A stretch of 64,000 nucleotides of DNA, from NCBI GenBank assembly GCA_016875915.1, contig VGOM01000007.1:1-64000 (forward strand), written 5' to 3'. Within the stretch, counting starts at the first letter, position 1, and each line of letters begins with the position of its first letter. The notes under the pieces were generated by a model, which saw only the letters and a list, made by a program, of their open reading frames with translations, did not search any database and was not told where the DNA came from. This document shows, piece by piece, positions 13,226 to 61,824 of the stretch. The translations under genes were made by a program, and so were the position numbers. The stretch is from Chloroflexota bacterium. GTDB lineage: Bacteria; Chloroflexota; Dehalococcoidia; UBA2247; RBG-13-53-26.

Positions 13226-15436
13226 TCAGATCCTTTCTACCTGCACCAGGGTGGTGTTGGAGCAGAAGGCCCCTCCCGGCGAGTGCTCGTCCCGGGTGAG
13301 GACATTGCAGCACCCTCCCCGGTCAACCCCATTCTCGTCGGGGTCATACCAGGCCCCTTGAGGGATGTCGACCACTCCGGGCATGATCCGCTCCGTGACC
13401 CTGGCGGGAATGACCATCCGGCCCCTGTCGTTGAACACCCTGACCATGTCGCCATCATTGATGCCCCTGGCCTGAGCGTCGGCGGAGTTGACGGACACGG
13501 CCTGAGTCTGGAGCTCGCGCAGCCAGGGCAGATTGTCGTACTGGGAGTGGGCCCGCCTCATGATGTGCGTGGTGACAAGCTGCAGCGGGTATCTGGCAGC
13601 AAGGGGATCACGGCGGCTCTCCCAGGTCTCGATGTACCTAGGGATGGGCGGAATCCGGGGATCGTCCATGTCCGCCAGGCGCTGGGAGTAGATCTCGATC
13701 TTGCCGCTGGGGGTGGGGAAGGGATTGTTCTGCGGATCTTCGATCTGAGCCTTGAAGGCCACAAACGGTTCGGCCATCCTCAGCTTGTGGATGCCGTCCT
13801 TCTTGAAGACATCGTAGTCGGCGATGTCGCGGCTGCCCTTGACGATCTCCCGCAGCCAGCCGTCCTCCGTATGCTCGCTGTAGTCGGCGACGCCTAGCTT
13901 CGCGGCCAGATCCATGCCGATCTGCAGGTGTGATCTGGCTTCGCCCGGCGGCTCGGCGGCCTTGTTCATGTAGCCGTAGAATCCCGTAGCGCCGTCCAGG
14001 GCAATGTCGTTCTTCTCCAAGGAGTTGCAGGTGGGCAGGACCAGGTCGGCGAACCTGGCCCCGGGGGTCGTGAACTGCTCGAAGACGACGACGAACTCCA
14101 GGCTCTTCAGGGCCCGGACGGCCTTGTTGACGTCGAGGTACTGATTGGGGTAGTCGGTGTCCACCAGATAGAGCAGCTTGTAGTCGGCGGGGTAGCCGCC
14201 GGCCCTGCCCCTGAGGATGGCATCGGACATCTTGGCGGTGTTGACCTGGCCACGCCTCATGGCCACGCCGAAGGCGGGGAGGGCATTGCGGCGGGGCGGG
14301 GCGTCGGCCTCAACGGGGTTGCGGGGCGATTTCGGACCACGGCCCAGGCTGAAGTAGGCCGTGGGACCGGCGGTGGGCCAGGAGCGTCCACCGGAGCTCC
14401 CGCCGTGGACGCCGACATTGCCGGTCATGGCGGCCAGGACCATGGCCGCCCGGTGATACTGCTCGCCGTAGGCGGTCCGTCCCGGAGCGATGCCGGCGAT
14501 GAGGGCCGCCGGCGTGGCGGTGGCATATTCCCTGGCGAAAGCAGCGATGGTGGCGGCGGGCACGCCGGTGATGGCCTCTGCCCAGGCGGGCGTCTTGGCC
14601 ACACCGTCCTCCAGTCCGAGGACATAGTGCTTGAAGTGATTGAGGCCCACGGTGTAGGTATCCAGAAAGGCCTGGTCCTGCAGGTTCTCCTTGATGATGA
14701 CGTAGGCCATGGCGATGAGCATGGCGGCGTCCGTGCCGGGGACGATGGGGATCCATTGCTGGGAGAAGGTGGCGTTCGATTCGGTGTACCGGGGGTCGAC
14801 GGAGACAATCCTGATCCCGGCCTCCCCGGCCTGGGCCAGGTACCAGGCGGTGTTGGTGTTCTGAATGGTCACCGAGGGATTCCAGCCCCACATGATGATA
14901 AGGCGGGAGTTGAGCAGGTCATCGCGGGTGTTGCCGGTGTCCACGGTGCCGTAGGTAGCCAGCTCGGCGAACAGTCCCCCGTCGAAGGAGAAGGTGCCCC
15001 AGACATCCGAGCAGCCACCGATCATATTCAGCACCTTGTAGTGGCACATGGCGTTGTGCAGCACGGAGGTATCACCTCCGGACCACTTGAAGAGGATGGC
15101 GGCGGGACCGTAGGTCTCCCGGACCCGGTTCAGCTCCCGGGCCAGGGTGTCCAGGGCCTCTTCCCAGGAGATCCGGGTGAACCGGCCCTCTCCGCGCTGG
15201 CCGACTCTCTTCAGAGGGTGCAGCAGCCGGTCGGGGGCATACATCCGCTGGCGGTAGGCCCGGCCGCGAACGCAGGCCCGGAACTGGGGATCGGCGCCGT
15301 CATCGGTCTCGATCCTGGCCACGACGCCGTCTTTGACGTGGACCTTGAGGAGGCATGCCCCGCCGCAGTGGCTGGAGTGCGTGGAGTAGATCACCTCCTC
15401 CGAGGCGGGCTGCCGATGGTCATGGTGAGCGCTCAT
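13226..15436 (-). CDS. Molybdopterin (Mo/W-bisPGD) oxidoreductase catalytic subunit, DMSO-reductase family, cytoplasmic, copy 1
   Basis: 736 aa. N-terminal CGGACLLKVHVKDG [4Fe-4S] motif. Collinear paralog of 10552..12759 with long identical blocks (LLNSRLIIMWGW, DRGGC). Confidence 0.85.
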   Translation of the reverse strand: MSAHHDHRQPASEEVIYSTHSSHCGGACLLKVHVKDGVVARIETDDGADPQFRACVRGRAYRQRMYAPDRLLHPLKRVGQRGEGRFTRISWEEALDTLARELNRVRETYGPAAILFKWSGGDTSVLHNAMCHYKVLNMIGGCSDVWGTFSFDGGLFAELATYGTVDTGNTRDDLLNSRLIIMWGWNPSVTIQNTNTAWYLAQAGEAGIRIVSVDPRYTESNATFSQQWIPIVPGTDAAMLIAMAYVIIKENLQDQAFLDTYTVGLNHFKHYVLGLEDGVAKTPAWAEAITGVPAATIAAFAREYATATPAALIAGIAPGRTAYGEQYHRAAMVLAAMTGNVGVHGGSSGGRSWPTAGPTAYFSLGRGPKSPRNPVEADAPPRRNALPAFGVAMRRGQVNTAKMSDAILRGRAGGYPADYKLLYLVDTDYPNQYLDVNKAVRALKSLEFVVVFEQFTTPGARFADLVLPTCNSLEKNDIALDGATGFYGYMNKAAEPPGEARSHLQIGMDLAAKLGVADYSEHTEDGWLREIVKGSRDIADYDVFKKDGIHKLRMAEPFVAFKAQIEDPQNNPFPTPSGKIEIYSQRLADMDDPRIPPIPRYIETWESRRDPLAARYPLQLVTTHIMRRAHSQYDNLPWLRELQTQAVSVNSADAQARGINDGDMVRVFNDRGRMVIPARVTERIMPGVVDIPQGAWYDPDENGVDRGGCCNVLTRDEHSPGGAFCSNTTLVQVERI

Positions 15437-15925: not shown

Positions 15926-16498
15926 CTAATGGGCGATACCGGCAGGCTCCGACTTGGGCTTGAAGATCACGGCCGGCCGGATCTTGGTCTTGTAGGTGAA
16001 TCCCACGGCATGGTGGGCCCCGCCATACTTGGCCTGGAGATCCTCCAGCGGCCCGGCATCCAGGGCCCGCATGGGGCAGCCAGCGACGCAGATGGGCGCT
16101 TTGCCCTCGGCCCAGCGCTCGAGGCAGAAGTCGCACTTCTCCATCTTGGCGTTTTCTTCGGCGCCGAACTGAGGGGCCTTGTAGGGGCAGACCTCGAGGC
16201 AGCGCTGGCAGGAGTCCTTGCCCAGGCAGAGCCCCCGGTCGACGACCACTATGCCATCCTCATCCCGCTTGGTCATGGCGTCCACGGGGCAGGCGGGGAT
16301 GCAGGCCGGGTGGGTGCAGTGGTAGCAGGCAGCAGCCATGAAGGCCACGAAGGGGTGCGGATACTTGCCCTTCTCTATGGTGGTCACCCGCATCCAGCTG
16401 GCCGGGCCAGCGGGGACATCATGCCAGTCCTTGCAGGCCACCACGCAGGCGTAGCAGCCGGTGCATCTGGTTTGGTCAAAGTAGAAAGCCAACTGCAT
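15926..16498 (-). CDS. DmsB-type 4x[4Fe-4S] ferredoxin electron-transfer subunit
   Basis: 190 aa. Four Cys clusters (CTGCYACVVAC, CYHCTHPACIPAC, CQRCLEVC, CDFC...CVAGCP) in the DmsB/PsrB arrangement. AGGAGG RBS. Confidence 0.85.
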   Translation of the reverse strand: MQLAFYFDQTRCTGCYACVVACKDWHDVPAGPASWMRVTTIEKGKYPHPFVAFMAAACYHCTHPACIPACPVDAMTKRDEDGIVVVDRGLCLGKDSCQRCLEVCPYKAPQFGAEENAKMEKCDFCLERWAEGKAPICVAGCPMRALDAGPLEDLQAKYGGAHHAVGFTYKTKIRPAVIFKPKSEPAGIAH

Positions 16499-27870: not shown

Positions 27871-28962
27871 TCAGTCCCCTTCCCGCAGTCCGGCTTCGCC
27901 GGCCAAGGCATCCTTCTTCTCCAGGGCGGAGTAGAACGCCTTCCAGAAGGGATCAACCCTGGGGTGGACCAGTTCCCTGCGCGCACCCCCGGCGGTGACG
28001 GTCATGCCCTGTCTGGCGTCGGTCAACTCTGCGACCACCGACGACCTGATCCCCTTCCGCGACAGAGCGGCAACGGCATCGGCCGCCCTGTGCTCGCGGC
28101 AAGCAATGACCAGGGTTCCCTCACTGATGGAGGAGTAGGGGTCGATGCCGAAGTAGCCGCAGACCTCGGGGACGCAGTCCTCGACCACAATGCGGTCGGC
28201 ATCCACTCTGATCCCCAGTCCGGAGGCCTGGCAGAGCTCATAGAGAGCACCCCAGATGCCACACTCCGTGGCGTCGTGCATGGCAGTCACACCGTCCTCC
28301 CTGACCCCAACGCCGGCCGCGGTGAGCGCATCATCAACGACGGACATCTTGTAGAAGATCCCCTGTGCCTTGCGACTGAAGGCCCCTCCGAACTGCCTGG
28401 CGATCAACTCAGGGAACATGGTGGCCAGTATCCCCACGGCTTCGATGGCCGGCCCCTTGGTGACGATGACTCTGTCGCCGGCCCGGCACATGGCCGGGGT
28501 GACGTATCTGTCCTTCTGGCCCACACTGATCACGGTGGCACCGCCGACCATGGGATAGTGGCAGTTCTCATACCTGGCGGTATGGCCACAGATGACGCAG
28601 ATGCCCAGTTGCTGACACTCCCGGTGGATGACGGTCCAGGTGATCTCCAGTTGCTCCCGGGTCATCTCCATAGGCAGGTTGAGATCGATGGAGAGGTAGG
28701 TCGGCTTCAGTCCAGAGGTCACCGCATCTGAGGCCAGTATGTGAAGGGCGAACCAGGCGGCCTTCTCCCAGCCGTACTCCGGCACGATGAAGACGGGGTC
28801 GGTAGTCAGGGCCACCGCCTTGTCCCCGATCTCAACGATGCCCACGTCAACGCCGTGCTGGGGACCGACCAGGACGCTGTCATTCCTGGCTCCAAGGCGG
28901 GGCAGTATCAGCTCCTCGAAGATCTCGGGGGATATCTTGCCTATCTCAGGAAGTTCCTTCAT
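27871..28962 (-). CDS. AIR-synthase-related (PurM/HypE/ThiL superfamily) protein
   Basis: PurM-like N-domain (DVGIVEIGDKAVALTTDPVF) and C-domain. Lacks the SelD N-terminal Cys/Sec loop and the HypE C-terminal Cys. Confidence 0.6.
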   Translation of the reverse strand: MKELPEIGKISPEIFEELILPRLGARNDSVLVGPQHGVDVGIVEIGDKAVALTTDPVFIVPEYGWEKAAWFALHILASDAVTSGLKPTYLSIDLNLPMEMTREQLEITWTVIHRECQQLGICVICGHTARYENCHYPMVGGATVISVGQKDRYVTPAMCRAGDRVIVTKGPAIEAVGILATMFPELIARQFGGAFSRKAQGIFYKMSVVDDALTAAGVGVREDGVTAMHDATECGIWGALYELCQASGLGIRVDADRIVVEDCVPEVCGYFGIDPYSSISEGTLVIACREHRAADAVAALSRKGIRSSVVAELTDARQGMTVTAGGARRELVHPRVDPFWKAFYSALEKKDALAGEAGLREGD

Positions 28963-33730: not shown

Positions 33731-33905
33731 CCAGCCTCTACCTCCCGGCTAGAATAACACGATAATCATTATCATGTTAGTCATAAATTATCATGGGCTC
33801 CAGGCCTTGTCAAGCGATTCCGTGATCCTGAAACGAAGGGGGAGTCAGTCGGCGTCCATCAACAGAAGTCAGGGGCCGGGCCGAGGATTCACCGCCGAAT
33901 CGGTG

Positions 33906-34145
33906 CTACTTCCGCCTGCTTCTGGCCGACGACCCAGACCGGCGGGGCGATCCGGCCCTGGCCGCCTCAAGCATGGTCTCCCACTTGCCTTCGCTCGGCA
34001 GCGGACGGCCGGCCTGCTGCGGGCTGTAGTGGTCGAGATACATCAGATTGCCGCACTGGACACAGTTCTCGTACCACTCACCGAGGTAACTGCCCATCAT
34101 GAGTATGCCTCCGCACTTGGGGCACTTCCGCGAACTGAGACCCAT
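33906..34145 (-). CDS. Small zinc-ribbon protein (80 aa), locus B partner
   Basis: Start taken at MGLSSRKCPKCGG. The CxxC-x19-CVQCGNLMYLDHY pattern echoes CQSCGTQKQFHNY in 45090..45368. Confidence 0.5.
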   Translation of the reverse strand: MGLSSRKCPKCGGILMMGSYLGEWYENCVQCGNLMYLDHYSPQQAGRPLPSEGKWETMLEAARAGSPRRSGSSARSRRK

Positions 34146-34213
34146 AACTGCACCTCTCCTTCCTGGTCTTCCGGGGAACTGCCTATGACGATAGTCCAGC
34201 GGGCATCTCCAGT

Positions 34214-34231
34214 CTGTGACCGCGGTCACAG
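34214..34231. promoter_or_regulatory. Perfect 18-bp palindrome CTGTGACCGCGGTCACAG (candidate operator)
   Basis: Exact dyad symmetry about 70-85 bp upstream of the zinc-ribbon gene start. Confidence 0.45.
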
Positions 34232-34545
34232 TCGGCATGAGAGTGAAGCAATGAACAGGCGGCACTTGCAGTCCGGCAACCCCCGTGTTATGATGGCATC
34301 AACAACTGAATAGACGATACATAGAGTCCAACGGGTCATAGCTCAACGGTTACAGCCAAACTAGGAGAAAGAAAGGGCCGATCTGAGCACTCAAGCGGAC
34401 TCTTTTCTTTTGCCCAGAACCGTCTGGAGTCAGCTGGCTTGGACTAGCCGAGACTCCACCCCGTCACCCCTGGAGGGAACCGGACAGACTGCCTCCATCG
34501 GGCTGGCAATACCACCACTGATTCGAGATTCGTCTTTGCGGGAAG

Positions 34546-34573
34546 TGGATGACGCATCAAGTGCGGCGTGACT
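34546..34573. repeat. Conserved hairpin motif, copy 2 (TGGATGACGCATCAAGTGCGGCGTGACT)
   Basis: Same loop TCAAG and GCA/TGC stem core as copies 1 and 3, with one mismatch and one G-U wobble. About 160 bp downstream of the minus-strand 5-Cys gene stop. Confidence 0.6.
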
Positions 34574-34729
34574 TGGGGCGAGTGCCGGGAGGGGCACGAG
34601 CCATACGCAAGGTGCAACCTGGGCGCGCATGTACCGGCAGCAAGAGGAGTGCACCGGCCAGCGGGAACTGTGTGACACGCAAATGCCCGCCCGGGGACAG
34701 GGGAGACAGTCCCCGTTGGCGGTCCGGGA

Positions 34730-34984
34730 TCAGCCGTAGCTGAACTGCTGCTCCGGCTCGGATCTCCTCACCCGCCGGTGAGTCACTATGGATGGCACGT
34801 GCATACAGCCGATAAGGCGGTCGGCGAGGTCCTGGCAATCACTCATGTAACGGCAGTTGCGGCAGTCGTCGTTCGTCCTGCTGCAGGCGAAGGCCCAGCG
34901 TTCAATTAGCTTGTCGTCGTCCTTCTTGGGATACCACCTGGCCCATCTCTGTCGTCCACTGGATTTCTCTCCCATTACGCGCAT
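34730..34984 (-). CDS. Small 5-Cys protein, family member B (84 aa)
   Basis: Start at MRVMGEK with GGAGGAG RBS. RQRWARWYPKKDDDKLIERWAFACSRTNDDCRNCRYMSDCQDLADRLIGCM aligns with 45374..45622 at identical Cys positions 34/41/44/50/60. Confidence 0.65.
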   Translation of the reverse strand: MRVMGEKSSGRQRWARWYPKKDDDKLIERWAFACSRTNDDCRNCRYMSDCQDLADRLIGCMHVPSIVTHRRVRRSEPEQQFSYG

Positions 34985-35111
34985 GCCTCTGTCTCCTCCT
35001 TCTGAAAAGGGGGGATGGTTTTGGAATAGGGCAAGCATAGGGGAGGGAGATTAGCTCCAGATGAGGGCAACCTTAGAAGAGCCTTAGAGTTTTGTCACAG
35101 AGCGGAGGCCG

Positions 35112-35139
35112 TGTTATACTTTTACCAGTTCAAGTATAA
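35112..35139. promoter_or_regulatory. 9-bp inverted repeat GTTATACTT-N10-AAGTATAAC (candidate GntR-type operator)
   Basis: Perfect inverted repeat about 25-50 bp upstream of the GntR-PBP regulator ATG, in the divergent intergenic region. Confidence 0.4.
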
Positions 35140-35163
35140 CAATATCCAGCGATCGGCACCGGC

Positions 35164-36360
35164 ATGGCAGCACGCAAGACAACCGCCCAAACCCCGCCTG
35201 AGGGGAAGTCAACGGCCATTCTCCTCGGCGACACCGCTCACTCCCCGCTCTTCACCCAGATAGTGGCACAGGTGAGGCAACTGGTAGCCACTGGCAGGCT
35301 GAAGCCAGGCGAACGCTTGCCCACCGTCAGGGAATTGGCGGACACCCTCGGGGTCAGCCCCGGCACAGTGGTCAGGGCCTATCTCGATCTGGAGAAGCAG
35401 GGGGTTGTCCAGTCCAGGCGAGGGGCGGGCACGTTCGTCTCCGCCAGTGTCGGACGTCCCGGAGCGTCTGCGCTGCGCAGGGGCCAGCTCTCCAACATAG
35501 TGAGCGGCAGCATCCTGGAAGCCCTGACTCTGGGCTTTGAGCCCGATGAAGTGGAGGCGGCCTTCTCGGTGCACCTGGCCCGCTGGCGCGAGGAGCGACA
35601 GCGGCTAGCAGCCACACCACCGAAGAGAGGCAGGAACGGGAACAAGACGATTGCCATTGTCGCCAGCCATGACCTGGCGCTCAACCTTCTGGTGAGCCAT
35701 CTCAAACAGCGCGATCCCCGGACTCGGGTAGAGGTGACCTATGCCGGAAGCCTGGGCAGCCTGATCGCCCTGCAGGGCGGAAGGGCCGACATAGCCGGCA
35801 TCCACCTCCTGGATGGTGAGACCGGGGAATACAACTGCCCCTACGTGAAGCACGTCCTCCCCAACCAGGAGGTGGCCGTAGTGCACCTCGCCTACAGAGT
35901 GCAGGGCATGATGTTCGCCGCGGGCAACCCCAAGCGGATCAAGGGACTGGAGGACCTGAAGCGTCCCGATGTCAGGATGCTCAACCGCCAGAAGGGCTCG
36001 GGGACCCGGGTACTGCTGGACTTCCAGTTGCAGCAACTGGGGATAGCGCCGCGTGACGTTCAGGGATACGAAACAGAGGTGGACACCCATCTGGCTGTGG
36101 CCGACGGCGTGGCCCGGGGAGAGGCAGACGTGGGCATGGGCATCGAGGCGGCCGCCAGAGCCTGCGGGGCCGACTTCCTGCCACTGTTCAGGGAGAGATA
36201 CGACCTGATCATCCCGATGGAGACCTACAAGAGCAGGCGGCTGTCCCATCTCCTGGAGATCGTAGCCAGCGAGGATTTCAGAAGGGTGGTGGCCGAGACC
36301 GGGGGCTATGACACCTCACAGACCGGGGCGACCACCTTCTGCAGATACGAGAAGAACTAG
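35164..36360 (+). CDS. GntR-family HTH regulator fused to a periplasmic-binding-protein-like (tungstate/molybdate-binding-like) domain
   Basis: N-terminal winged HTH (LPTVRELADTLGVSPGTVVRAYLDLE), C-terminal PBP type-2-like domain. Sits immediately upstream of tupABC. Confidence 0.75.
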   Translation: MAARKTTAQTPPEGKSTAILLGDTAHSPLFTQIVAQVRQLVATGRLKPGERLPTVRELADTLGVSPGTVVRAYLDLEKQGVVQSRRGAGTFVSASVGRPGASALRRGQLSNIVSGSILEALTLGFEPDEVEAAFSVHLARWREERQRLAATPPKRGRNGNKTIAIVASHDLALNLLVSHLKQRDPRTRVEVTYAGSLGSLIALQGGRADIAGIHLLDGETGEYNCPYVKHVLPNQEVAVVHLAYRVQGMMFAAGNPKRIKGLEDLKRPDVRMLNRQKGSGTRVLLDFQLQQLGIAPRDVQGYETEVDTHLAVADGVARGEADVGMGIEAAARACGADFLPLFRERYDLIIPMETYKSRRLSHLLEIVASEDFRRVVAETGGYDTSQTGATTFCRYEKN

Positions 36361-36566
36361 GCACTCCGAGCCCTGACCCCTAGGGGCGGTGAGCCTACGG
36401 GGCAGCGGCCGGCAGGGTATCGCGGGAAACGGCGATGCCTCCCTCAGCTTGGAAAGGAGTGTATGGCTAGAAGGGCAGGCCCGGAATGCCGGGCGCCACC
36501 GGGTACGGATTGATGTCTTTGATGCGATCGGCCCCATGTTTATGTAAATAAAGGACAGAAGGATCA

Positions 36567-37451
36567 ATGACAAGAAAGCCACTGTATTGCCTGGTGACTG
36601 TGCTGGTTCTGGCAGCCCTGGTGATCGGCGCCATCGGCTGCAGCAGCGAGACCAGCGGAGGAGTGCTCAAGCCCGAGGGCAGACTCCGGGTGGCGACGAC
36701 CACCAGCCTGTATGACACCGGACTCTGGGGCTACCTGGAGCCGAAGTTCGAGAAGCAGTATGACGTGGAACTGGACGTACTGTCGGGGGGAACCGGCCTG
36801 GCACTGGAGTGGGGCAGGAGAGGAGACGTGGATGTCCTCACCGTGCATTCCAAGGCCGATGAACTGAAGTTCATCGCCGACGGCTATGCCGCAGAGCGTG
36901 TCTGGTTTGCCTGCAACTACTTCCTGATCGTGGGACCAGAGGACGATCCGGCCGGCATCAAGGGTATGTCACCGGAAGAGGCCTTCAAGACGCTGTACGA
37001 TGGCGGCGAAGGGAAGTTCGTCTCCCGCGGGGACAACTCCGGCACCCACAGCAAAGAGAAGGCCATATGGAAGGCCGCCGGCTATGCCGACTATGCGGCA
37101 CTGACAGAGGCCGGAATAGCAGCAGGGTGGTACCTGGAGGCGGGCAGGGGCATGGGGGATACCCTGGTAATGGCCCGCGAGTTGGGAGCGTACACGCTGA
37201 CAGACATCGGCACCTTCCTGGCATTTCAGAGCGACCTGCAACTGGTGCCCATCGTGGAGAGCGGCAGTATCCTGCTCAACGTTTACTCCGTGCTGGTCTG
37301 TGCGAAGAGCACGAAACAGGAGATGGCCAACAACCTGGTGACCTTCCTCACCTCGCCGGAGGTACAGGACCTGATCGCCGACTATGGCGTAGCGGACTAT
37401 GGCCAGTCACCGTTCACGTCCTGCGCCGGCCAAGATGAGCCGACGTCGTAG
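36567..37451 (+). CDS. tupA: Tungstate ABC transporter substrate-binding lipoprotein TupA
   Basis: Lipobox (AIGCSS), RLRVATTTSLYDTGLW and RGDNSGTHSKE motifs typical of TupA. Confidence 0.8.
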   Translation: MTRKPLYCLVTVLVLAALVIGAIGCSSETSGGVLKPEGRLRVATTTSLYDTGLWGYLEPKFEKQYDVELDVLSGGTGLALEWGRRGDVDVLTVHSKADELKFIADGYAAERVWFACNYFLIVGPEDDPAGIKGMSPEEAFKTLYDGGEGKFVSRGDNSGTHSKEKAIWKAAGYADYAALTEAGIAAGWYLEAGRGMGDTLVMARELGAYTLTDIGTFLAFQSDLQLVPIVESGSILLNVYSVLVCAKSTKQEMANNLVTFLTSPEVQDLIADYGVADYGQSPFTSCAGQDEPTS

Positions 37452-37475
37452 CAGCACTGGGAGAACTGCAAGACA

Positions 37476-38165
37476 TTGACCGAACTTTGGGACGGATTAG
37501 TACAAGCCCTGCACCTAATCGTCACCTTCGACGATGAGGTGGTGGACATCGCGTGGAGGTCGCTGCGGGTATCGGCGGCCTCCACCGTCCTGGCAGCCCT
37601 GATCTGCATCCCCCTGGGCGGACTGATCAGCTTCCGCAGTTTCCGGGGCAAGCGCCTGCTGATCAACGTCATCCAGACCTTCTACAGCGTGCCCACGGTC
37701 TGCGTGGGCCTGTTCGTCTTCCTGATGCTCTCGCGGGCTGGGCCCCTGGGGGGACTAGGACTCCTGTTCACGCCGTCGGCTATGGTGGTGGGGCAGGCGC
37801 TGCTGATCACGCCCATCATGCTGGGGCTGACCATCTCCGCCCTGAGCAGCGTGGACAAGAACATCAGGGACACCACCCTGTCCCTGGGTGCCTCCGAGCG
37901 GCAGGCCATCTGGGCCATTATCAAAGAGGCCAGATTCGCCATCAGCGCCGCCATCGTCCTCGGCTTCGGCCGGGCCATCTCCGAGGTGGGGGTAGCGATG
38001 ATGGTGGGAGGGAACATCAGGGGCTTCACCCAGATTCTGACCACGGCGATCGCTGACGAGGCCAACCAGGGTAACGTAGAACTGGCGCTGGCTCTCGGCG
38101 TGATCCTCCTGGCAATTGCCCTAGTCGTCACTCTGGGTGTCAACCTGGTACAGCAGAGGCGCTGA
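37476..38165 (+). CDS. tupB: Tungstate ABC transporter permease TupB
   Basis: 229-aa 5-6 TM permease with an ABC TMD EAA-like loop. Confidence 0.75.
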   Translation: MTELWDGLVQALHLIVTFDDEVVDIAWRSLRVSAASTVLAALICIPLGGLISFRSFRGKRLLINVIQTFYSVPTVCVGLFVFLMLSRAGPLGGLGLLFTPSAMVVGQALLITPIMLGLTISALSSVDKNIRDTTLSLGASERQAIWAIIKEARFAISAAIVLGFGRAISEVGVAMMVGGNIRGFTQILTTAIADEANQGNVELALALGVILLAIALVVTLGVNLVQQRR

Positions 38166-39241
38166 TGTCCATCATGCAAGTCATCGATCTACACCAGCGC
38201 CACGGCTCCAGGGAGACGCTGAAGGGCGTATCGTTCTCCCTAGAGCAGGGGGAGGTGTTCGGGATCATCGGCCCGACCGGCTCGGGGAAGACAACGCTGC
38301 TGCGCCTGCTGGACCAGATCGAGGTGCCCTCCTCAGGCAGGGTCTACTTCGAAGGGCGGGATGTCACCGGATCACCCAGGCTGCGGTCAGAGCTGAGGCG
38401 CAAGGTGGGGATGGTCCTTCAGAAGCCGGTGGTCTTTGATGCCAGTGTCTATGACAACGTGGCCTTCCCTCTGAGACTGCGAAGGTACAGCAGAAAGGTT
38501 GTCCACGGCAAGGTGGACACCATGCTGAATGCAGTGGGGCTCGATGGCTACCAGAGGCGGAATGCGCGCACGCTGTCGGGCGGCGAAACCCAGAAAGTGG
38601 CCCTGGCGCGGGCACTGATCACCAATCCGCAGGCACTGCTACTGGACGAGCCGACGGCCAACCTGGACCCGGTCAGCCTGAAGACGATCGAGGAGTTCAT
38701 CCTGCGGTTCAGCCGGGAGAACGGAACGACGATTGTCATTGCCACACACGAGATGGCCCAGGGCCAGCGCCTGGCCGACAGGATAGGCGTGATAATGGAG
38801 GGACAACTGGTCCAGATCGGCAAACCATCCGAGATCTTCTATGCGCCAAGCGACATCAGGGTCGCCCGCTTCGTAGGGGTTGAGAACATCCTGGAGGGAA
38901 GGGTGACTTCAAACCGGGAGGGGCTCGTTCACTTGGACGTCCACGGACGCGCCGTAGAGGCCATAGCCAATCGTCATCCAGGTGATGAGCTGCACCTGTT
39001 CATCAGACCGGAGGACGTAGTCCTGTCACTGAGCGAGGCCTCAACCAGCGCCAGGAACTCCTTCTCAGGTCAGATAGCCGGGCTGGCCATGTCTGGTCCC
39101 TTGGCCAGGGTACACCTCGATTGCGGCTTCCCGCTGGTGGCACTGATCACCAGACAGTCAGCCGAAGACCTGGGACTGCAGGTCGGGAAGCAAGCTCACG
39201 TTTCCTTCAAGGCAACCGCGGTCCACGTCATCGGGCAGTGA
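38165..39241 (+). CDS. tupC: Tungstate/molybdate ABC transporter ATP-binding protein with C-terminal TOBE domain
   Basis: Walker A GPTGSGKTT, LSGGETQKVALARAL, Walker B LLLDEPTANLD, C-terminal TOBE-like domain. Start overlaps the tupB stop. Confidence 0.85.
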   Translation: MSIMQVIDLHQRHGSRETLKGVSFSLEQGEVFGIIGPTGSGKTTLLRLLDQIEVPSSGRVYFEGRDVTGSPRLRSELRRKVGMVLQKPVVFDASVYDNVAFPLRLRRYSRKVVHGKVDTMLNAVGLDGYQRRNARTLSGGETQKVALARALITNPQALLLDEPTANLDPVSLKTIEEFILRFSRENGTTIVIATHEMAQGQRLADRIGVIMEGQLVQIGKPSEIFYAPSDIRVARFVGVENILEGRVTSNREGLVHLDVHGRAVEAIANRHPGDELHLFIRPEDVVLSLSEASTSARNSFSGQIAGLAMSGPLARVHLDCGFPLVALITRQSAEDLGLQVGKQAHVSFKATAVHVIGQ

Positions 39242-40596: not shown

Positions 40597-40624
40597 TGGA
40601 TGCCGCATCAAGTGCGGCATGACA
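40597..40624. repeat. Conserved hairpin motif, copy 3 (TGGATGCCGCATCAAGTGCGGCATGACA)
   Basis: Perfect 8-bp stem ATGCCGCA/TGCGGCAT with TCAAG loop. Differs from copy 1 by a compensatory C-G to G-C swap. About 80 bp downstream of the lepA stop. Shares the upstream CCACCC flank with copy 1. Confidence 0.7.
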
Positions 40625-40698
40625 TCTCGGAGATGCGCGGGGTGACCCGACGTGGGCGGACCTGCCGGTGCAGGTCAGGTGGAGCGTGGTGCTGGGGA

Positions 40699-42494
40699 CT
40701 ACTCCTCGAGCTTGAGGAGGGAGAGGAAGGCTTCCTGGGGCACCTCCACGGAGCCAACCATCTTCATGCGCTTCTTGCCCTCTTTCTGCTTCTCAAGGAG
40801 CTTCCTCTTGCGGGTAACATCGCCGCCGTAGCACTTGGCCAGAACGTCCTTCCTGATCGGGGCGATGTCCTCTCTGGCCACGATCCTGCCACCGATGGAC
40901 GCCTGGAGGGGGACCTTGAACTGCTGCCGGGGGATGAGCTTCCTCAGCTTGCTCACCAGCACCCTAGCCCGTGCAATGGCGGCATCCCGGGTGGCGATGT
41001 AGGAGAAGGCATCCACAGGGTCGCCGTTGACCAGGATGTCCACCTTCACCAGGTCGCCGGTGCGGTAGCCGGCGAGCTCATAGTCCATGCTGGCATAGCC
41101 CTGGCTGACGCTCTTGAGCCGGTCGTAGAAGTCGGCGATGATCTCCACCAGGGGGAAGTCGTAGGTGAGGACCACCCTCCTCTGATCCGGATGATCCATG
41201 CCCGCCAGCGTGCCCCGGCGGGAGCTGGCCAGCTCCATGCAGGGTCCCACGAAGGCGGTGGGGACGACAATCTGGGCCCGGATCATGGGCTCCTCTATGT
41301 GGTCGATCTCCTGGACACTGGGGAACTTCGAGGGGTTGTCGATCATGAGCACATCGCCCGCGGTGGTGGCCACCTTGTAGACCACCGAGGGCATGGTGGC
41401 GATGAGGTTCTGCTCGTACTCGCGGCGCAGTCTCTCCACAGTGATCTCCATGTGGAGCATGCCCAGGAAGCCAACGCGGAAGCCATGGCCCAGGGCGGCG
41501 GAGTTCTCCTTCTGGAAGACGATGGAGGAGTCGTTGAGCTGGAGCTTCTCCAGGGCCATCTTGAGCTTGTCATAGTCGCCGGTGTCCACCGGGTAGAGTC
41601 CGCAGAAGACCATGGGCTGGAGCCGTCTGAAGCCGGCGATGAACGGGGTCTCCGGATGCTCCGGCGAGATGATGGTGTCACCGACACTGACATCGGCCAC
41701 TTCCCGGACCATGGCGCTGACGTAGCCCACGTCGCCGGCCACCAGCCGCTGGCAGGGCATGGGCTGGGGACTGAAGTGGCCCACGTCCTCCACATCGAAG
41801 GTCTTGCCGCTGGACTTGACCAGGATATGGTCGCCGGGCGAGATGCTGCCGGAGAAGACCCGGATGTGGGCGATGACCCCGCGATAGGGGTCGTAGTGGG
41901 AGTCAAAGACGAGGCAACTGAGGGGGGCGGCGGGCTCTCCTCCGGGGTGCGGGATGCGCGACACAATGGCCTCCAGGAGCGCGGGCACGCCGGTGCCCTC
42001 CCGGGCGGAGACCAGCAGGGCATCCTCGGCGGGCAGTCCGAGCATCTCCTCGAGCTGGAGCAGGCAGTCGTCGATCATGGCATTGGGGAGGTCGATCTTG
42101 TTGATCACGGGGATGATCTCCAAGCCGGCGTCAACGGCGAAGTAGGCATTGCCGATGGTCTGGGCCTCGACGCCCTGCGAGGCATCCACCAGGAGGACAG
42201 CCCCCTCACAGGCCTTGAGGCTGCGGGAGACCTCGTAGTTGAAGTCGATGTGGCCGGGGGTGTCAATCAGGTTCAGGACGTACTCAGCGCCGCCGGGGGA
42301 CCTGTAGGGTATCCTGACCGGTTTGGCCTTGATGGTGATGCCCCGCTCACGCTCCAGGTCCATGCTGTCCAGGACCTGCTCGCTGCCGGAGGTGCGGATC
42401 ACCCCGGTCAGCTCGAGGATGCGGTCGGCCAGGCTGGACTTGCCGTGGTCGATGTGGGCAATGATGCAGAAGTTGCGGATGGCCTTGGTCTTGC

Positions 42495-42498
<4 letters not shown>
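40699..42498 (-). CDS. lepA: Elongation factor 4 (LepA)
   Basis: IRNFCIIAHIDHGKSSLADR G1 motif, DTPGHIDF, and the LepA-specific C-terminal domain. Confidence 0.95.
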
Positions 42499-43754
<1,256 letters not shown>

Positions 43755-45644: not shown

Positions 45645-46658
45645 ATGGACTACAAGGACTACTACAAGGTCCTGGGCGCGGACAAGAAGGCCACCGCCAA
45701 GGAGATCAAGCACGTCTACCGCAAGCTGGCCCGCCAGCACCACCCGGACGTGAATCCAGGCAACAAGCAGGCCGAGGCGCGATTCAAGGAGATCAACGAG
45801 GCCTATGAGGTGCTGGGGGACGAAGAGAAGCGGAAGAAATACGACGAACTGGGCGCCAACTGGAAGCACTACGAGCAGTGGCAGCGGGCAGGCGGCGAAG
45901 CCAGCGGACAACCCTTTGACTGGAGCCAGTATGGCTTCGGGGCGGGGCCGGGCAGGGGCGGCCGCTACCAGACCCGGACGGTGTCCGAAGAGGAACTGAA
46001 GGACCTCTTCGGCGATTCCGGGCCATTCTCCAGCTTCTTCTACACCTTCTTCGGCGGCGGAGAGCAGCCGGAGATGGGCGGCAGACGGCACTTCAGGACG
46101 ACGTCGCGGCAGCACCGGGGCGAGGACCTGGAGCAGCCGGTAGAGATAAGCCTGGAGGAGGCCTTCAGCGGCACCAACCGCATCCTGCAGATGCAGGACG
46201 CCCACGGCAGAGTCCGCCGACTCGAAGCCAAGATCCCCGCCGGGGTCCAGGAAGGCTCCAGGGTCCGCCTGGCCGGCCAGGGGGGACACGGGGCGGGCGG
46301 GGGGCCGGGCGGCGACCTGTACCTGGTGGTCCACATCCTGCCCCATCATCTCTTTGAACGAAAAGAGGATGATCTTCACCTCAAGCTGGGCGTGCCCCTG
46401 ATCACCGCGGTGCTGGGAGGTGAGGTCAGCGTGCCCACGCTGAACGGCAGGGCAATAATGCTGAAGATCCCGCCCGAGACACAGAACGGGCGGGTGTTCC
46501 GGCTCCGGGGCAAGGGCCTTCCCAAGCTGGCAGCCTCTCCGCAGAAGCACGGGGACCTGCTGGCTGAGGTGAGGGTGGTCCTGCCCGACTGCCTCTCCGA
46601 CAAAGAGCGCAAGCTCTTCGAGGAACTGGCTAAGCTGCGTCCCGCAGACGGCGAGTAG
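45645..46658 (+). CDS. cbpA: DnaJ-class co-chaperone lacking the zinc-finger domain (CbpA-like)
   Basis: J domain (DYYKVLG...HPD), G/F-rich linker, two C-terminal beta-sandwich domains, no CxxCxGxG repeats. Confidence 0.8.
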   Translation: MDYKDYYKVLGADKKATAKEIKHVYRKLARQHHPDVNPGNKQAEARFKEINEAYEVLGDEEKRKKYDELGANWKHYEQWQRAGGEASGQPFDWSQYGFGAGPGRGGRYQTRTVSEEELKDLFGDSGPFSSFFYTFFGGGEQPEMGGRRHFRTTSRQHRGEDLEQPVEISLEEAFSGTNRILQMQDAHGRVRRLEAKIPAGVQEGSRVRLAGQGGHGAGGGPGGDLYLVVHILPHHLFERKEDDLHLKLGVPLITAVLGGEVSVPTLNGRAIMLKIPPETQNGRVFRLRGKGLPKLAASPQKHGDLLAEVRVVLPDCLSDKERKLFEELAKLRPADGE

Positions 46659-46719: not shown

Positions 46720-49362
46720 ATGAGCATGAACAAGTTCACCGAAAAGGCGCAGGAAGCCATCGTCTCGGCACAGCAGATCGCCGAGAGGAGCAATCATACC
46801 CAGCTTGACGTGGAACACCTGCTGGCGGCCTTGCTGGACCAGTCGGAAGGCATAGCGCCTCAGGTACTGCGGAAGCTGGGGGCTGACCAGGCGCAGGTCA
46901 AGGTCGAGCTAGCCAGCGAGATGGACCGCCTCCCCAAGGGGTATGGCGCGGTGCAACTGTCGATGTCCCCGCGCTTCAAACGGGTCCTGGATACGGCCCA
47001 GATCGAGGCGGGAAGGCTCAAGGATGAGTACGTCAGCACCGAGCACCTGCTGATCGCCCTTGTCGACGATCAGGACAGGGGAGCGGCCAGCCGCATCCTG
47101 AAGAGCCACGGGGTGACCAAGGACCGGATCTATCAGGTGCTGACCAGCATCAGGGGGACGCAGCGGGTGACCGACCCCAATCCCGAAGGCAAGTACCAGC
47201 CGCTGGAGAAGTACGGCCGGGACCTGACCGAGATGGCCCGCAAGGACAAACTGGACCCGGTGATCGGCCGGGACAAGGAGATCCGCCGGGTGATCCAGGT
47301 CCTGTCGCGCCGCACCAAGAACAACCCTGTTCTGATCGGCGAACCGGGCGTGGGCAAGACGGCCATCGTCGAAGGTCTGGCACAGCGGATAGTCAAGGGG
47401 GATGTGCCTGAGGGGCTGAAGAACAAGCGCCTGGTGGTGCTGGATCTGGGAGCCATCGTGGCCGGCTCGAAGTACCGCGGGGAGTTCGAGGAACGGCTCA
47501 AGGCGGTGCTGAAGGAGGTCCAGGAGGCCGAAGGCAGAATCCTCCTCTTCATCGATGAGCTGCACACCGTGGTGGGGGCCGGCGCCGCCGAGGGGGCCAT
47601 GGACGCCTCCAACATGCTCAAGCCGATGCTGGCCCGGGGAGAGCTGCACTGCATCGGGGCCACCACGCTGAACGAATACCGGAAGCACATTGAGAAGGAC
47701 GCCGCTCTGGAGCGCCGTTTCCAGCCGGTGATGGTCAACGAGCCAACGGTGGAGGACACTATCAGCATCCTGCGCGGACTGAAGGAACGATATGAGGTTC
47801 ACCACGGGGTGAGGATCAAGGACTCGGCGCTGGTAGCGGCAGCGGTGCTGTCACACCGCTACATCAGCGACCGCTTCCTGCCGGACAAGGCCATCGACCT
47901 GGTGGACGAGGCGGCCAGCAGACTGCGCATGGAGATCGACAGCGTGCCGGCGGAACTGGATGAAGTTCAAAGACGGACGATGCAACTGGAGATCGAGCGC
48001 CAGGCACTGAAGAAGGAGAGCGACGACACATCGAAGGAGCGCCTGGCGCACCTGGAGAAGGAGCTGGCCGACCTGAAGGAAGAGGGCAACCGGCTGAAGG
48101 CGCAGTGGCAGCAGGAGAAGGGGGCCATCCAGGGCATCCAGCAGATCAAGGAGCAGATCGAACAGGCCAAGCTGGAGGTGCAACAGGCGGAGCGGTCGGC
48201 CGACCTGGAGAAGGCGGCCCAACTGAAGTACGGCACCCTGGTGGAACTGGAGAGGCAACTCAGAGAGAAGGAATCCCATCTCACCGCGGCACAGGAGGGC
48301 CACACCATGCTGCAGCAGGAGGTGGGTGAAGAGGACATCGCCGAAGTGGTCAGTCACTGGACAGGGGTGCCGGTGAGCCGGCTGATGGAGGGCGAGATCC
48401 AGAAGCTGCTGAAGATGGAGGAGCGCCTGCACGTCCGGGTGGTGGGCCAGGATGAGGCCATCAACGCGGTGAGCAGCGCAATCAGACGGGCCAGGGCGGG
48501 GCTGCAGGACCCCAACCGGCCTCTGGGCAGCTTCATCTTCCTGGGGCCGACGGGGGTAGGCAAGACCGAGCTGGCCCGGGCGCTGGCCGAGTTCCTCTTC
48601 GACGACGAGCAGGCCATGATCCGCCTGGATATGTCCGAGTACATGGAGAAGCACACGGTGTCGCGGCTGATCGGCGCGCCGCCGGGGTATATCGGCTATG
48701 ACGAAGGGGGCCAGCTCACTGAAGCGGTGCGGCGGCGGCCCTACTCGGTGGTGCTGTTCGACGAGATCGAGAAGGCGCACCCCGACGTGTTCAATACGCT
48801 TCTCCAGATCCTCGACGACGGCCGGCTCACGGACGGCCATGGCCGGACGGTCGACTTCAAGAACACCGTGGTGATCATGACCAGCAACCTGGGCGGTCAC
48901 CTGTTCAGCGAGCCGGGCCTGGCCGACACGGACGAGGTCCGCCACCGGGTGATGGAGACGCTCCGGGCCCAGTTCCGGCCGGAGTTCCTCAACAGAATCG
49001 ACGAGGTAATCATCTTCCACTCGCTGGACCGCGACCAGATCAAGGAGATCGTGGACATCCAGATGAGGGGATTGAAGCAGCGGCTCGATGGCCGGCACAT
49101 GAGCTTTGAGCTGACGGATGCGGCCAAGGAACTGGTGGTGGAACAGGGATACGATCCCACCTACGGCGCCAGGCCTTTGAGGAGAACCATCCAGCGCCGC
49201 ATCCTGGACCCGCTGGCCCTGAGGGTTCTCGACGGCACCTTCAGCGACGGCGCCAGGATAGTGGTCGACGCCAGGGATGGGGAGATCGTCTTCCGTGAGG
49301 AGGACGGGGGGCACGAACACAAACAGAAATCATCGCACAAGAAGTCCGCGCGGTCCGGATAG
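46720..49362 (+). CDS. clpB: ATP-dependent disaggregase ClpB
   Basis: 880 aa: Clp-N repeats, two AAA+ modules ([16 protein letters not shown]), long M-domain coiled coil in NBD1. Confidence 0.95.
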
Positions 49363-49404
49363 CCGCGTCAGAGAACCAGGCAAGGGGAAGGCAAGGAGGA
49401 TGAG

Positions 49405-49926
49405 ATGAATGTAGTACTGTACACCACGCGCACCTGACCCTACTGCTACCAGGTGAAGGAGTTTCTTTCACAGAAGGGCATCGCCTACCAGGAGCGTGAC
49501 GTCTCGGTGGACCGGGAAGCGGCCCGGGAGATGATTCAGAAGACGGGGCAGCGGGGCGTGCCGGTGACCACGGTGGACGGCGAGGCGGTGATCGGCTTCG
49601 ACCGGGCCAGGCTGGAGCAGCTGCTGGCCAAGCAGGGTGGGGGGCAGCATCCCTCCATGGGTCTGCAGGTGGCCGACGCCAGCAAGATCGCCCAGAAAGT
49701 GGGCGCCGTGCCGGTCTTCGGAGCCCTGGTGGGCGGCGTCAGACCGGGCTCGGCCGGTGAGAAGGCGGGGCTGGAGCAGGGCGATGTGATCACCGAGGTC
49801 AACCTGCGCCGGATCAGCAACGCCGATGATCTGGAGAAGGCCGTGGCTGGACTGTCGGCGGGCAGCCGGGCGGCCATAGTCTTCATGCGGGGGCAGAAGG
49901 AGATCCGGGCGGAGGTCACCCTCTAG
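49405..49926 (+). CDS. Candidate selenoprotein: glutaredoxin-like domain (U-P-Y-C active site, in-frame TGA at 49435-49437) fused to a PDZ domain
   Basis: AAGGAGGA RBS 5 nt before the ATG at 49405. Read-through gives MNVVLYTTRT-U-PYCYQVKEFLSQKGIAYQERDVS...GVPVTTVDGEAVIGFDRARLEQLL, a complete Grx fold. The track ORF from 49453 would lack beta1 and the CxxC motif. Confidence 0.6.
49453..49471 (+). ncRNA. Candidate bacterial SECIS stem-loop (GUGAAGG-AGUUU-CUUUCAC)
   Basis: 7-bp stem (one G-U) with a 5-nt loop containing GUU, starting 16 nt 3' of the in-frame UGA. Confidence 0.35.
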
Positions 49927-50053
49927 GGCAACATCGGCGTCATTCTAGGGCACTATCACGCGGGGACGGCCGAGGGGCCGTCCCCGTTGCTTTGCGGCAA
50001 TGGCAGCCACGGCGGGGATGCGTCTATAATATCAACTGCCGGGGGAGACAGCG

Positions 50054-61617: not shown

Positions 61618-61824
61618 GGGATGTTGCCTCCTCAGGAACAGTGTTCCGTCCGCTGCAGGTCAGAGCTGCAGCGTGTCCCAGCAATTGAAGCCCTTGGAGT
61701 AGTCCAGCAGGTACTCAATGATGGCCTTCCTCAGAGTCTGTTCCATATCCACCCCCCTGCCTTGATATCCTCTCCGAAAAGGACTTGGCAGGCATAGCCC
61801 GTCCGGGCCGACGCTCTCCCGGCT

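Follow-up and report, generated by a model that had tools for sequence, protein, structure and literature searches.

The stretch of DNA analyzed here, referred to as the window, comprises 64,000 nucleotides (nt) of contig VGOM01000007.1 from a Chloroflexota bacterium of the class Dehalococcoidia (assembly GCA_016875915.1). On its forward strand, downstream of dnaJ and clpB, the window contains a gene in which a glutaredoxin (Grx) domain is fused to a PDZ domain (Grx-PDZ) and in which an in-frame TGA occupies the first position of the redox motif. The evidence presented below makes it very likely that this triplet directs genuine insertion of selenocysteine (Sec) at codon 11. The gene and the encoded protein display the following features:

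49393-49400, forward strand: Shine-Dalgarno sequence AAGGAGGA, as read from the sequence, separated by the spacer tgag (4 nt) from the ATG at 49405
49405-49926, forward strand: coding sequence of the putative Grx-PDZ selenoprotein, 173 codons including the candidate UGA-Sec as codon 11, stop codon TAG at 49924-26
49435-49437, forward strand: in-frame UGA, putative selenocysteine at residue 11, position 1 of the motif U-P-Y-C (49435-49446), aligned with the invariant Cys11 of the orthologs
49453-49471, forward strand: hairpin resembling a selenocysteine insertion sequence (SECIS), with an 8-bp stem (49453-49460/49464-49471), the loop GUU (49461-49463) and a ΔG of -8.2 kcal/mol
49411-49629, forward strand: glutaredoxin domain (PF00462), residues 3-75, with the order β1-α1-β2-α2-β3-β4-α3
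Residues 51-54, forward strand: cis-Pro loop G-V-P-V, of which V52-P53-V54 are invariant in the family
49630-49650, forward strand: glycine-rich flexible linker, residues 76-82, of low confidence in the ortholog model
49651-49923, forward strand: HtrA-type PDZ domain, residues 83-173 (PF13180, 5e-12; PF17820, 2e-9)
49657-49665, forward strand: carboxylate-binding loop of the PDZ domain, M85-G86-L87 (Φ-G-Φ), within P83-S-M-G86-L

Translation from the ATG at 49405 yields ten sense codons (MNVVLYTTRT), the TGA at 49435-37 and, in the same frame, PYCYQVKEFLS..., which continues to the C-terminus ...AEVTL. The sole stop-free open reading frame (ORF) at the locus extends from a GTG at 49453 to 49926; its 157 amino acids lack the first β-strand as well as the redox motif. 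An AGGAGG-type motif is also found 5' of the ATG in the orthologous loci L011, L012, L014 and L015, whereas inspection of the sequence ahead of the GTG at 49453 revealed no motif of the Shine-Dalgarno type. If the TGA is read as cysteine, the match to the Pfam Glutaredoxin profile crosses it, with residues 3-62 covering positions 1-60 of the 60 profile positions. The Shine-Dalgarno sequence at its 4-nt distance, the interrupted translation and the truncated ORF thereby agree with the initial annotation, which had proposed a glutaredoxin-PDZ fusion with Sec in the active site.

In a codon-usage scan of both strands, the TGA at 49435-37 was the only one in the window with coding sequence on both sides, junctions between genes excepted; the remaining matches of the scan represent neighbouring genes that share a frame, where TGA serves as a normal stop. 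The triplet is flanked by coding sequence on both sides and lies inside the Glutaredoxin match, so that its in-frame position is not due to chance. A TGA at 61662 on the reverse strand lies in non-coding DNA upstream of an isochorismatase-like gene and was therefore dismissed as a selenoprotein candidate. A scan for genes with in-frame TGA that was filtered by the GC content of third codon positions returned mostly spurious pairs and missed the Grx-PDZ gene.

A protein search revealed 710 relatives at E ≤ 1e-10, most of which comprise 173 amino acids, share 55-72% identity and read C-[PGA]-Y-C from residue 11 to residue 14. All of the closest relatives (66-92% identity) are annotated with 157 amino acids (one with 156), start with 'M/VKEFLSQKG' and are cut at the same point, because their DNA carries an in-frame TGA at codon 11. 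In L005, L006 and L007-L010, an ATG and nine sense codons precede this TGA, and these sequences differ synonymously from that of the window. Genome and metagenome scans gave 97 loci in which the Grx N-terminus could be parsed. Codon 11 is a stop codon in 55 of these, in every case TGA, and TGC or TGT in the other 42, while neither TAA nor TAG occurs at this position in any of the 97; as the search patterns were not neutral, the ratio of 55:42 is no estimate of abundance. Alignment with orthologs, put forward in the initial annotation as a check for cysteine codons at this site, thus returned both states. The TGA form is present in at least 40 distinct orthologous sequences, and an identical TGA-bearing sequence was recovered from four independent metagenome assemblies. 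A neighbour-joining tree built from 79 distinct proteins shows the Sec and Cys states intermixed, with at least eight switches, the usual pattern for Sec/Cys families (PMC1794560). Among genomes, the nearest relatives detected by the genome scan belong to RBG_13_53_26 (82% identity), to a metagenome-assembled genome (MAG) of Dehalococcoidia (80%) and to an 'uncultured Chloroflexia' MAG (74%), and the Grx-PDZ fusion as such is widespread in Chloroflexota.

The sequence 5' of the TGA is conserved as well. Across the 43 distinct Sec-form sequences, codons 2-10 vary chiefly at third positions, and because the ten codons 5' of the TGA are retained as protein, the downstream GTG is not the start codon of the orthologs.

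The second element that accompanies the TGA is the hairpin GUGAAGGA-GUU-UCUUUCAC, which begins at the 16th nt past the UGA and has its loop G (49461) at the 24th. The initial annotation had placed a hairpin at the same coordinates and described it as 7 bp with a 5-nt loop, which is equivalent to the 8-bp stem with the loop GUU given here. A hairpin at this offset is present in all 43 distinct Sec-form sequences, which fall into two classes:

Class A (window type): GYGARRGA-GUU-UCUUUCRC, 8-bp stem, 17 distinct sequences, 99.3% of cells paired
Class B: GYYAAGA-GNUU-UCUUGRY, 7-bp stem, 23 distinct sequences, 99.4% of cells paired

In both classes, pairing falls to 34-77% when the 3' partner is shifted by 1-3 columns. 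RNAalifold returns the hairpin as a consensus helix in class A and in class B, and in the window-type alignment it is the only one. Pair 2 covaries between U-A, U-G and C-G in both classes, which in class B forces the encoded residues to vary together (Val/Asp, Val/Gly, Ala/Gly), and pair 3 is G-C in class A versus C-G in class B. Within the loop of the Sec forms, the first base is invariably G, located 23-24 nt after the UGA, with a U later in the loop. A lower-stem extension (CCCU 49438-41/AGGG 49475-78), predicted by the minimum-free-energy fold of the single sequence, is not conserved in the alignment and was dropped.

Comparison of the two codon-11 states shows the hairpin to be a specific feature of the Sec forms. 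All 43 Sec sequences fold locally with a ΔG of -6.5 kcal/mol or lower (mean -8.5 kcal/mol), whereas the Cys forms (n = 31) display a mean of -3.4 kcal/mol, with only 23% at -5 or lower. Moreover, the third-position entropy of codons 20 and 21 (Phe, Leu), calculated without phylogenetic correction, is 0.27 and 0.00 in the Sec forms compared to 0.98 and 1.66 in the Cys forms. Conservation of the TGA region among relatives, on which the initial annotation had made its reading depend, is hence found in the form of a covarying hairpin specific to TGA-bearing genes. Three of the hairpin-bearing Cys forms (L019, L144 and L163) are nested in Sec clades of the tree, and their hairpins look like relic SECIS elements, consistent with recent reversion from Sec to Cys. 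According to a published generalization, bacterial SECIS elements comprise a stem of 6-8 bp whose loop has a conserved G roughly 20 nt 3' of the UGA (PMC4605307); judged from sequence, the geometry of the hairpin fits this SelB-type description.

The protein comprises two domains. The Glutaredoxin profile PF00462 is matched with 69.4 bits (3e-19; cutoff 22.9) and the PDZ_2 profile PF13180 with 46.3 bits (cutoff 27), the latter confirming the assignment of the C-terminal half in the initial annotation. Structural information was obtained from the AlphaFold model of P0003, a Cys ortholog with 72% identity, which has a mean predicted local distance difference test (pLDDT) score of 83.9 and values of 82-88 in the Grx domain. 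In this model the Grx fold consists of β1 (residues 3-7), α1 (12-23), β2 (29-32), α2 (37-47), β3-β4 (54-63) and α3 (67-75). Residue 11 is positioned immediately ahead of helix α1, which is the location of the nucleophilic cysteine in CxxC redoxins. The PDZ domain follows at residues 87-172, and the pLDDT of the connecting linker (residues 78-81) drops below 50. Together with a predicted template modelling score of 0.51, the model thus assigns no fixed orientation to the two domains. The closest solved structure to the Grx domain is cGrx1 (7C10/7C12; phmmer 1.7e-18), on which it superimposes in Foldseek with a root-mean-square deviation (r.m.s.d.) of 1.0 Å at 50% identity, and the best structural matches of the PDZ domain are PDZ1 of DegQ, DegP and HtrA. 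Within the PDZ domain G86, A90, D91 and A92 do not vary across the family, and the loop P83-S-M-G86-L is likewise conserved. The N-terminus does not resemble a signal peptide, because the protein opens directly with β1, and no trypsin-like protease domain was found in the Grx-PDZ protein.

Despite this agreement, several observations weigh against selenocysteine insertion. As the initial annotation had already stated, the machinery for Sec insertion is not visible in the 64-kb window, which contains no tRNA gene and no recognizable selA, selB or selD. In tblastn searches of the window and of 170 related loci (1.6 Mb) with approximate E. coli SelD, SelA and SelB queries, no selA, selB or selD was found, SelA giving no matches at all, and ARAGORN identified no tRNA-Sec among the 74 tRNAs of all loci. 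The codon-usage scan for TGA also yielded no further selenoprotein gene in the window. The hairpin, regarded by itself, is weak evidence: a 66-nt fold of the single sequence has no significance (z = -0.20), and an equally stable hairpin follows at the same offset after 6.2% of the 2107 TGA triplets of the window, although only 0.9% of them are followed by a strict SECIS-like pattern. The element is near-invariant and its covariation is confined to one pair per class, the peptide K-E/R-F-L partly constrains its sequence, and five Cys forms with the same peptide (L019, L100, L124, L144 and L163) also fold it. Furthermore, the difference in hairpin ΔG between Sec and Cys forms (Mann-Whitney p = 2.3e-9) is not corrected for phylogeny. 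A search of Rfam around the site, at gathering thresholds and with E-values up to 10, returned only noise and no match of the SECIS type, and Rfam holds no model that fits the bacterial SECIS element. It is therefore the comparative data rather than the individual fold that carry the weight.

Two groups of matches from the machinery search were rejected. The SelB query retrieved LepA or EF-like GTPases, including the protein encoded at 40699-42498 (reverse strand) in the window. A protein of the AIRS family at 27871-28962 (reverse strand) shares 25% identity with E. coli SelD but is devoid of the N-terminal Cys/Sec-Lys motif of SelD. The gene for this AIRS and AIRS_C protein is situated between genes for a PALP enzyme and a pyridoxal-phosphate enzyme of Cys/Met metabolism, with a radical-SAM gene nearby, and may thus be part of a sulfur or selenium metabolite cluster rather than of the Sec machinery. 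With respect to the lineage, Dehalococcoidia MAGs with 46 and 49 selenoproteins are among the richest bacterial selenoproteomes in BSepDB (PMC13326102), and Sec decoding is therefore common in Dehalococcoidia.

The rival explanation closest to current gene models takes the TGA as an ordinary stop, preceded by a ten-residue leader peptide and followed by a true product of 157 residues that starts at the GTG 49453. The frame of this GTG is indeed the only stop-free one, and gene callers deliver exactly the 157-residue product (or one of 141 residues) in many assemblies. However, such a product would be deprived of β1 and of the entire redox motif, although the Glutaredoxin profile matches from its first position, and AAGGAGGA is located in front of the ATG 49405 and not of the GTG. 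Moreover, loci with synonymous differences from one another still encode a conserved peptide in codons 1-10, full-length Cys orthologs exist, and the stop codon is TGA in 55 out of 55 cases, which renders termination at codon 11 very improbable. A further reading, in which a single change from TGC or TGT to TGA has produced a pseudogene or is an artefact of sequencing or assembly of a gene of the Cys type, has a practically negligible probability: occurrence of the same TGA in four independent assemblies and in at least 40 distinct orthologs effectively refutes it, and purifying selection acts on the frame downstream of the TGA, which is intact.

In general, read-through can be favored by a hairpin located 3' of a stop codon. 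The UGA might accordingly be read without a Sec system, by a near-cognate tRNA (Trp or Cys), by a Cys-tRNASec or through recoding specific to the lineage, with the hairpin merely slowing the ribosome, and the lack of observed Sec machinery in the window and the related loci counts in favor of this possibility. A general reassignment of UGA is unlikely, though, given that no other gene of the window is interrupted by TGA and that TGA acts as a normal stop at junctions of genes in the same frame. The affected position is the catalytic cysteine of CxxC, a classic site of Sec/Cys exchange, and it is the same position at which the closest characterized homolog, a true selenoprotein, carries Sec (PMC7642778). 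In addition, the geometry of the hairpin and its conserved loop G match a SelB-type SECIS (PMC4605307). Read-through of this kind is thus improbable, and genuine insertion of Sec at codon 11, as proposed in the initial annotation, is supported by the orthologs, by the hairpin specific to the Sec forms and by a native Sec-glutaredoxin with 50% identity.

The Grx-PDZ gene is the last of three co-directional genes, followed at its 3' side by a second hairpin:

45645-46658, forward strand: dnaJ, upstream and co-directional, identified from Pfam matches in the loci L005, L006 and L008, which are syntenic
46720-49362, forward strand: clpB, upstream and co-directional, identified in the same way
49960-49987, forward strand: GC-rich 12-bp hairpin followed by UUGCUUUGC, 34 nt past the stop codon of the Grx-PDZ gene

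The hairpin at 49960-49987 has a centroid energy of -28.7 kcal/mol (z = -4.5), with none of 200 shuffled sequences folding as well. Due to a short and weak T-run it was missed by a consensus terminator scan, yet it probably represents the transcription terminator of the dnaJ-clpB-grxPDZ unit. Downstream of it are situated a gene of the FAA-hydrolase family and a gene for an old yellow enzyme (OYE)/pyridine-nucleotide-disulfide oxidoreductase. The gene order dnaJ-clpB-grxPDZ is repeated in L005, L006, L008, L011, L013, L016 and L091; dnaJ or clpB alone is found immediately upstream in about a dozen more Sec or Cys loci, and dnaK occupies this place in the Cys forms L014, L118 and L121. On the other hand, the synteny extends over only part of the family, and in other clades the neighbours are unrelated, for instance CoA-transferases or a Crp-type regulator, which speaks against a general link with chaperones. 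The association with chaperone genes is thus recurrent but not universal.

Based on these features, the following mode of action can be envisaged. Translation would start at the ATG 49405 and give rise to a cytoplasmic selenoprotein of 173 residues from 49405-49926 (forward strand). At the UGA 49435-37, Sec would be delivered by the complex SelB·GTP·Sec-tRNASec, with the hairpin 49453-49471 acting as a bacterial SECIS that tethers SelB to the mRNA. The attacking residue would be the Sec of U11-P-Y-C14 at the N-terminus of helix α1. The PDZ domain may bind client proteins at hydrophobic strands or at C-termini that are exposed, and thereby place disulfides or mixed disulfides of the client within reach of the Sec/Cys pair, which would reduce them and form a U11-C14 selenenylsulfide to be recycled by a reductant. 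Since the gene ends a dnaJ-clpB unit and its relatives follow dnaK or dnaJ, the clients are possibly substrates of the disaggregation machinery that have unfolded or suffered oxidative damage. The gene neighbourhood thus suggests a PDZ-targeted disulfide reductase in protein quality control. A more specific version, in which the protein is a dedicated redox co-chaperone of DnaK/DnaJ/ClpB in Chloroflexota, the PDZ domain docking to unfolded clients at their exposed C-termini or strands and Sec resolving aberrant disulfides during extraction from aggregates, is put forward as a speculation that we consider rather unlikely; if true, it would constitute a quality-control role undescribed for any glutaredoxin or prokaryotic selenoprotein.

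In public databases the Sec forms are represented by N-terminal truncations of 157, 156 or 141 amino acids (clusters P0001, P0068 and P0079 and their members). Because they are called as truncated proteins, the catalytic residue is absent from the databases for the gene of the window and for dozens of orthologs. The truncated forms carry the Joint Genome Institute names 'glutaredoxin 3', 'S1-C subfamily serine protease' and 'putative serine protease PepD', and the names given to the Cys forms include 'PDZ domain-containing protein' and 'Uxx-star family glutaredoxin-like (seleno)protein'. Since Grx-PDZ has no protease domain, the label 'S1-C subfamily serine protease' is an annotation artefact. 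A simple rule, consisting of a UGA followed by [PG]-Y-C and the conserved hairpin, could be used to annotate the genes. Both the class of enzyme and the mechanism of recoding are already known; the fusion to a PDZ domain, the breadth of its distribution in Chloroflexota, the link to chaperone operons and the systematic mis-annotation are new. The family would represent a widespread and easily recognized addition to the selenoproteome of Chloroflexota. Moreover, predictors for bacterial SECIS elements and selenoproteins are described as still unreliable (PMC12013277), and the two classes of candidate SECIS elements form a compact and well-sampled set, including Cys revertants with relic hairpins, that could be useful to train them. 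The position of a redox domain tethered to a PDZ domain behind dnaK, dnaJ or clpB also leads to a testable hypothesis, in which selenium-based thiol chemistry would be tied to protein repair in anaerobic bacteria of the subsurface.

Apart from the Grx-PDZ locus, the window harbors genes related to molybdenum or tungsten. A riboswitch for the molybdenum (Moco) or tungsten cofactor (RF01055, 74.7 bits) is found at 36352-36475 on the forward strand, within a group of genes extending from 35164 to 39241 (forward strand). Directly 3' of it are encoded a periplasmic-binding protein, a permease and an ABC-ATPase with a TOBE domain, and a GntR regulator with a PBP_like domain is located ahead; this arrangement looks like an operon for uptake of molybdate or tungstate. 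Two paralogous catalytic subunits of molybdopterin oxidoreductases with about 735 amino acids and the domains Fe4S4, Molybdopterin and Molydop_binding are encoded at 10552-12759 and 13226-15436 (both reverse strand), accompanied by a 4Fe-4S dicluster subunit and a glyoxalase-fold protein (cluster including 15926-16498, reverse strand). Neither of the two subunits contains an in-frame TGA, and they are therefore not formate dehydrogenases of the Sec type. The 1.4-kb region 33731-35163 contains no coding-like ORF, Rfam match or tandem repeat, its longest ORF (33774-34313) being without a Pfam match. An ORF of 688 amino acids at 40600-42666 (forward strand) wholly overlaps the real lepA (EF4) gene at 40699-42498 (reverse strand) and is a long spurious antisense ORF of the kind that is common in sequence with 64% GC; it had been part of the training set of the codon-usage model, with no effect on the conclusions.

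The best matches of the Grx domain in NCBIfam are YruB and Uxx-star, both single-domain models with about 70-74 profile positions, whose names also serve for Cys orthologs in public annotation. With Cys substituted for Sec, the score for GlrX_YruB (TIGR02196) is 87.6 bits and thus falls marginally short of the cutoff of 88.55, and that for Uxx-star (NF041212) is 60.7 bits and does not reach the cutoff of 66. The models NF041199 (Trx7/PDZ (seleno)protein; 25.9 bits, cutoff 300) and degP_htrA_DO (58 bits, cutoff 416) are matched by the PDZ region only. By its sequence, the protein is a Pfam Glutaredoxin member of the selenoprotein group 'Grx, UxxC' and belongs to none of the curated NCBIfam equivalogs tested. 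As the family name indicates, Uxx-star proteins carry Sec three residues before the C-terminus; in Grx-PDZ the putative Sec is residue 11, and the protein ends with ...AEVTL-stop instead of U-x-x-stop.

The UxxC glutaredoxins have been catalogued as a bacterial selenoprotein family since 2005 (PMC1088965, PMC1794560, PMC13188914). A native selenoprotein of this type with the motif U(or C)PXC is cGrx1 of Clostridium oremlandii, in which Sec was replaced by Cys for structural work (PMC7642778). The Grx domain of Grx-PDZ has the same fold as cGrx1 (PDB 7C10/7C12), to which about 75 residues align at 47-50% identity with an r.m.s.d. of 1.0 Å, and in the U-P-H-C motif of cGrx1 Sec is located at the same first position of UPxC (PMC7642778). 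Moreover, the cis-Pro loop G/A-V-P-V and the motif V-G-F-D-R are common to both proteins. In contrast to Grx-PDZ, cGrx1 is a stand-alone protein of 84 amino acids from a Firmicute and has no PDZ domain. The two also differ in their setting, since Grx-PDZ follows dnaJ-clpB in a Chloroflexota host, and while the selenoprotein MsrA is the proposed partner of cGrx1, no msrA is evident adjoining the Grx-PDZ gene.

With regard to the RNA element, the hairpin resembles the SelB-bound SECIS elements of E. coli fdhF and Moorella thermoacetica in its location inside the reading frame immediately 3' of the UGA, in a stem of 6-8 bp and in a loop that has a conserved G, with U next to it, some 20 nt from the UGA (PMC4605307). 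The candidate SECIS differs from them in its primary sequence, in a loop of 3-4 nt and in the lack of an evident bulged U.

The PDZ domain is of the same PF13180 type as PDZ1 of HtrA, DegP and DegQ and retains their Φ-G-Φ carboxylate-binding loop, but unlike in these proteins it is not combined with a protease domain. No description of a Grx-PDZ selenoprotein was found in the literature searched, and in the table of a 2026 review Trx7/PDZ is the sole selenoprotein architecture that joins a redox domain to PDZ (PMC13188914). Like Trx7/PDZ (NF041199), the protein described here combines a redox domain of the thioredoxin fold, with a Sec position in its active site, with a PDZ domain. However, Trx7/PDZ is a protein of about 390 amino acids with a Trx-like domain and the motif CxxU, whereas Grx-PDZ carries its putative Sec in a glutaredoxin domain with the motif UxxC.

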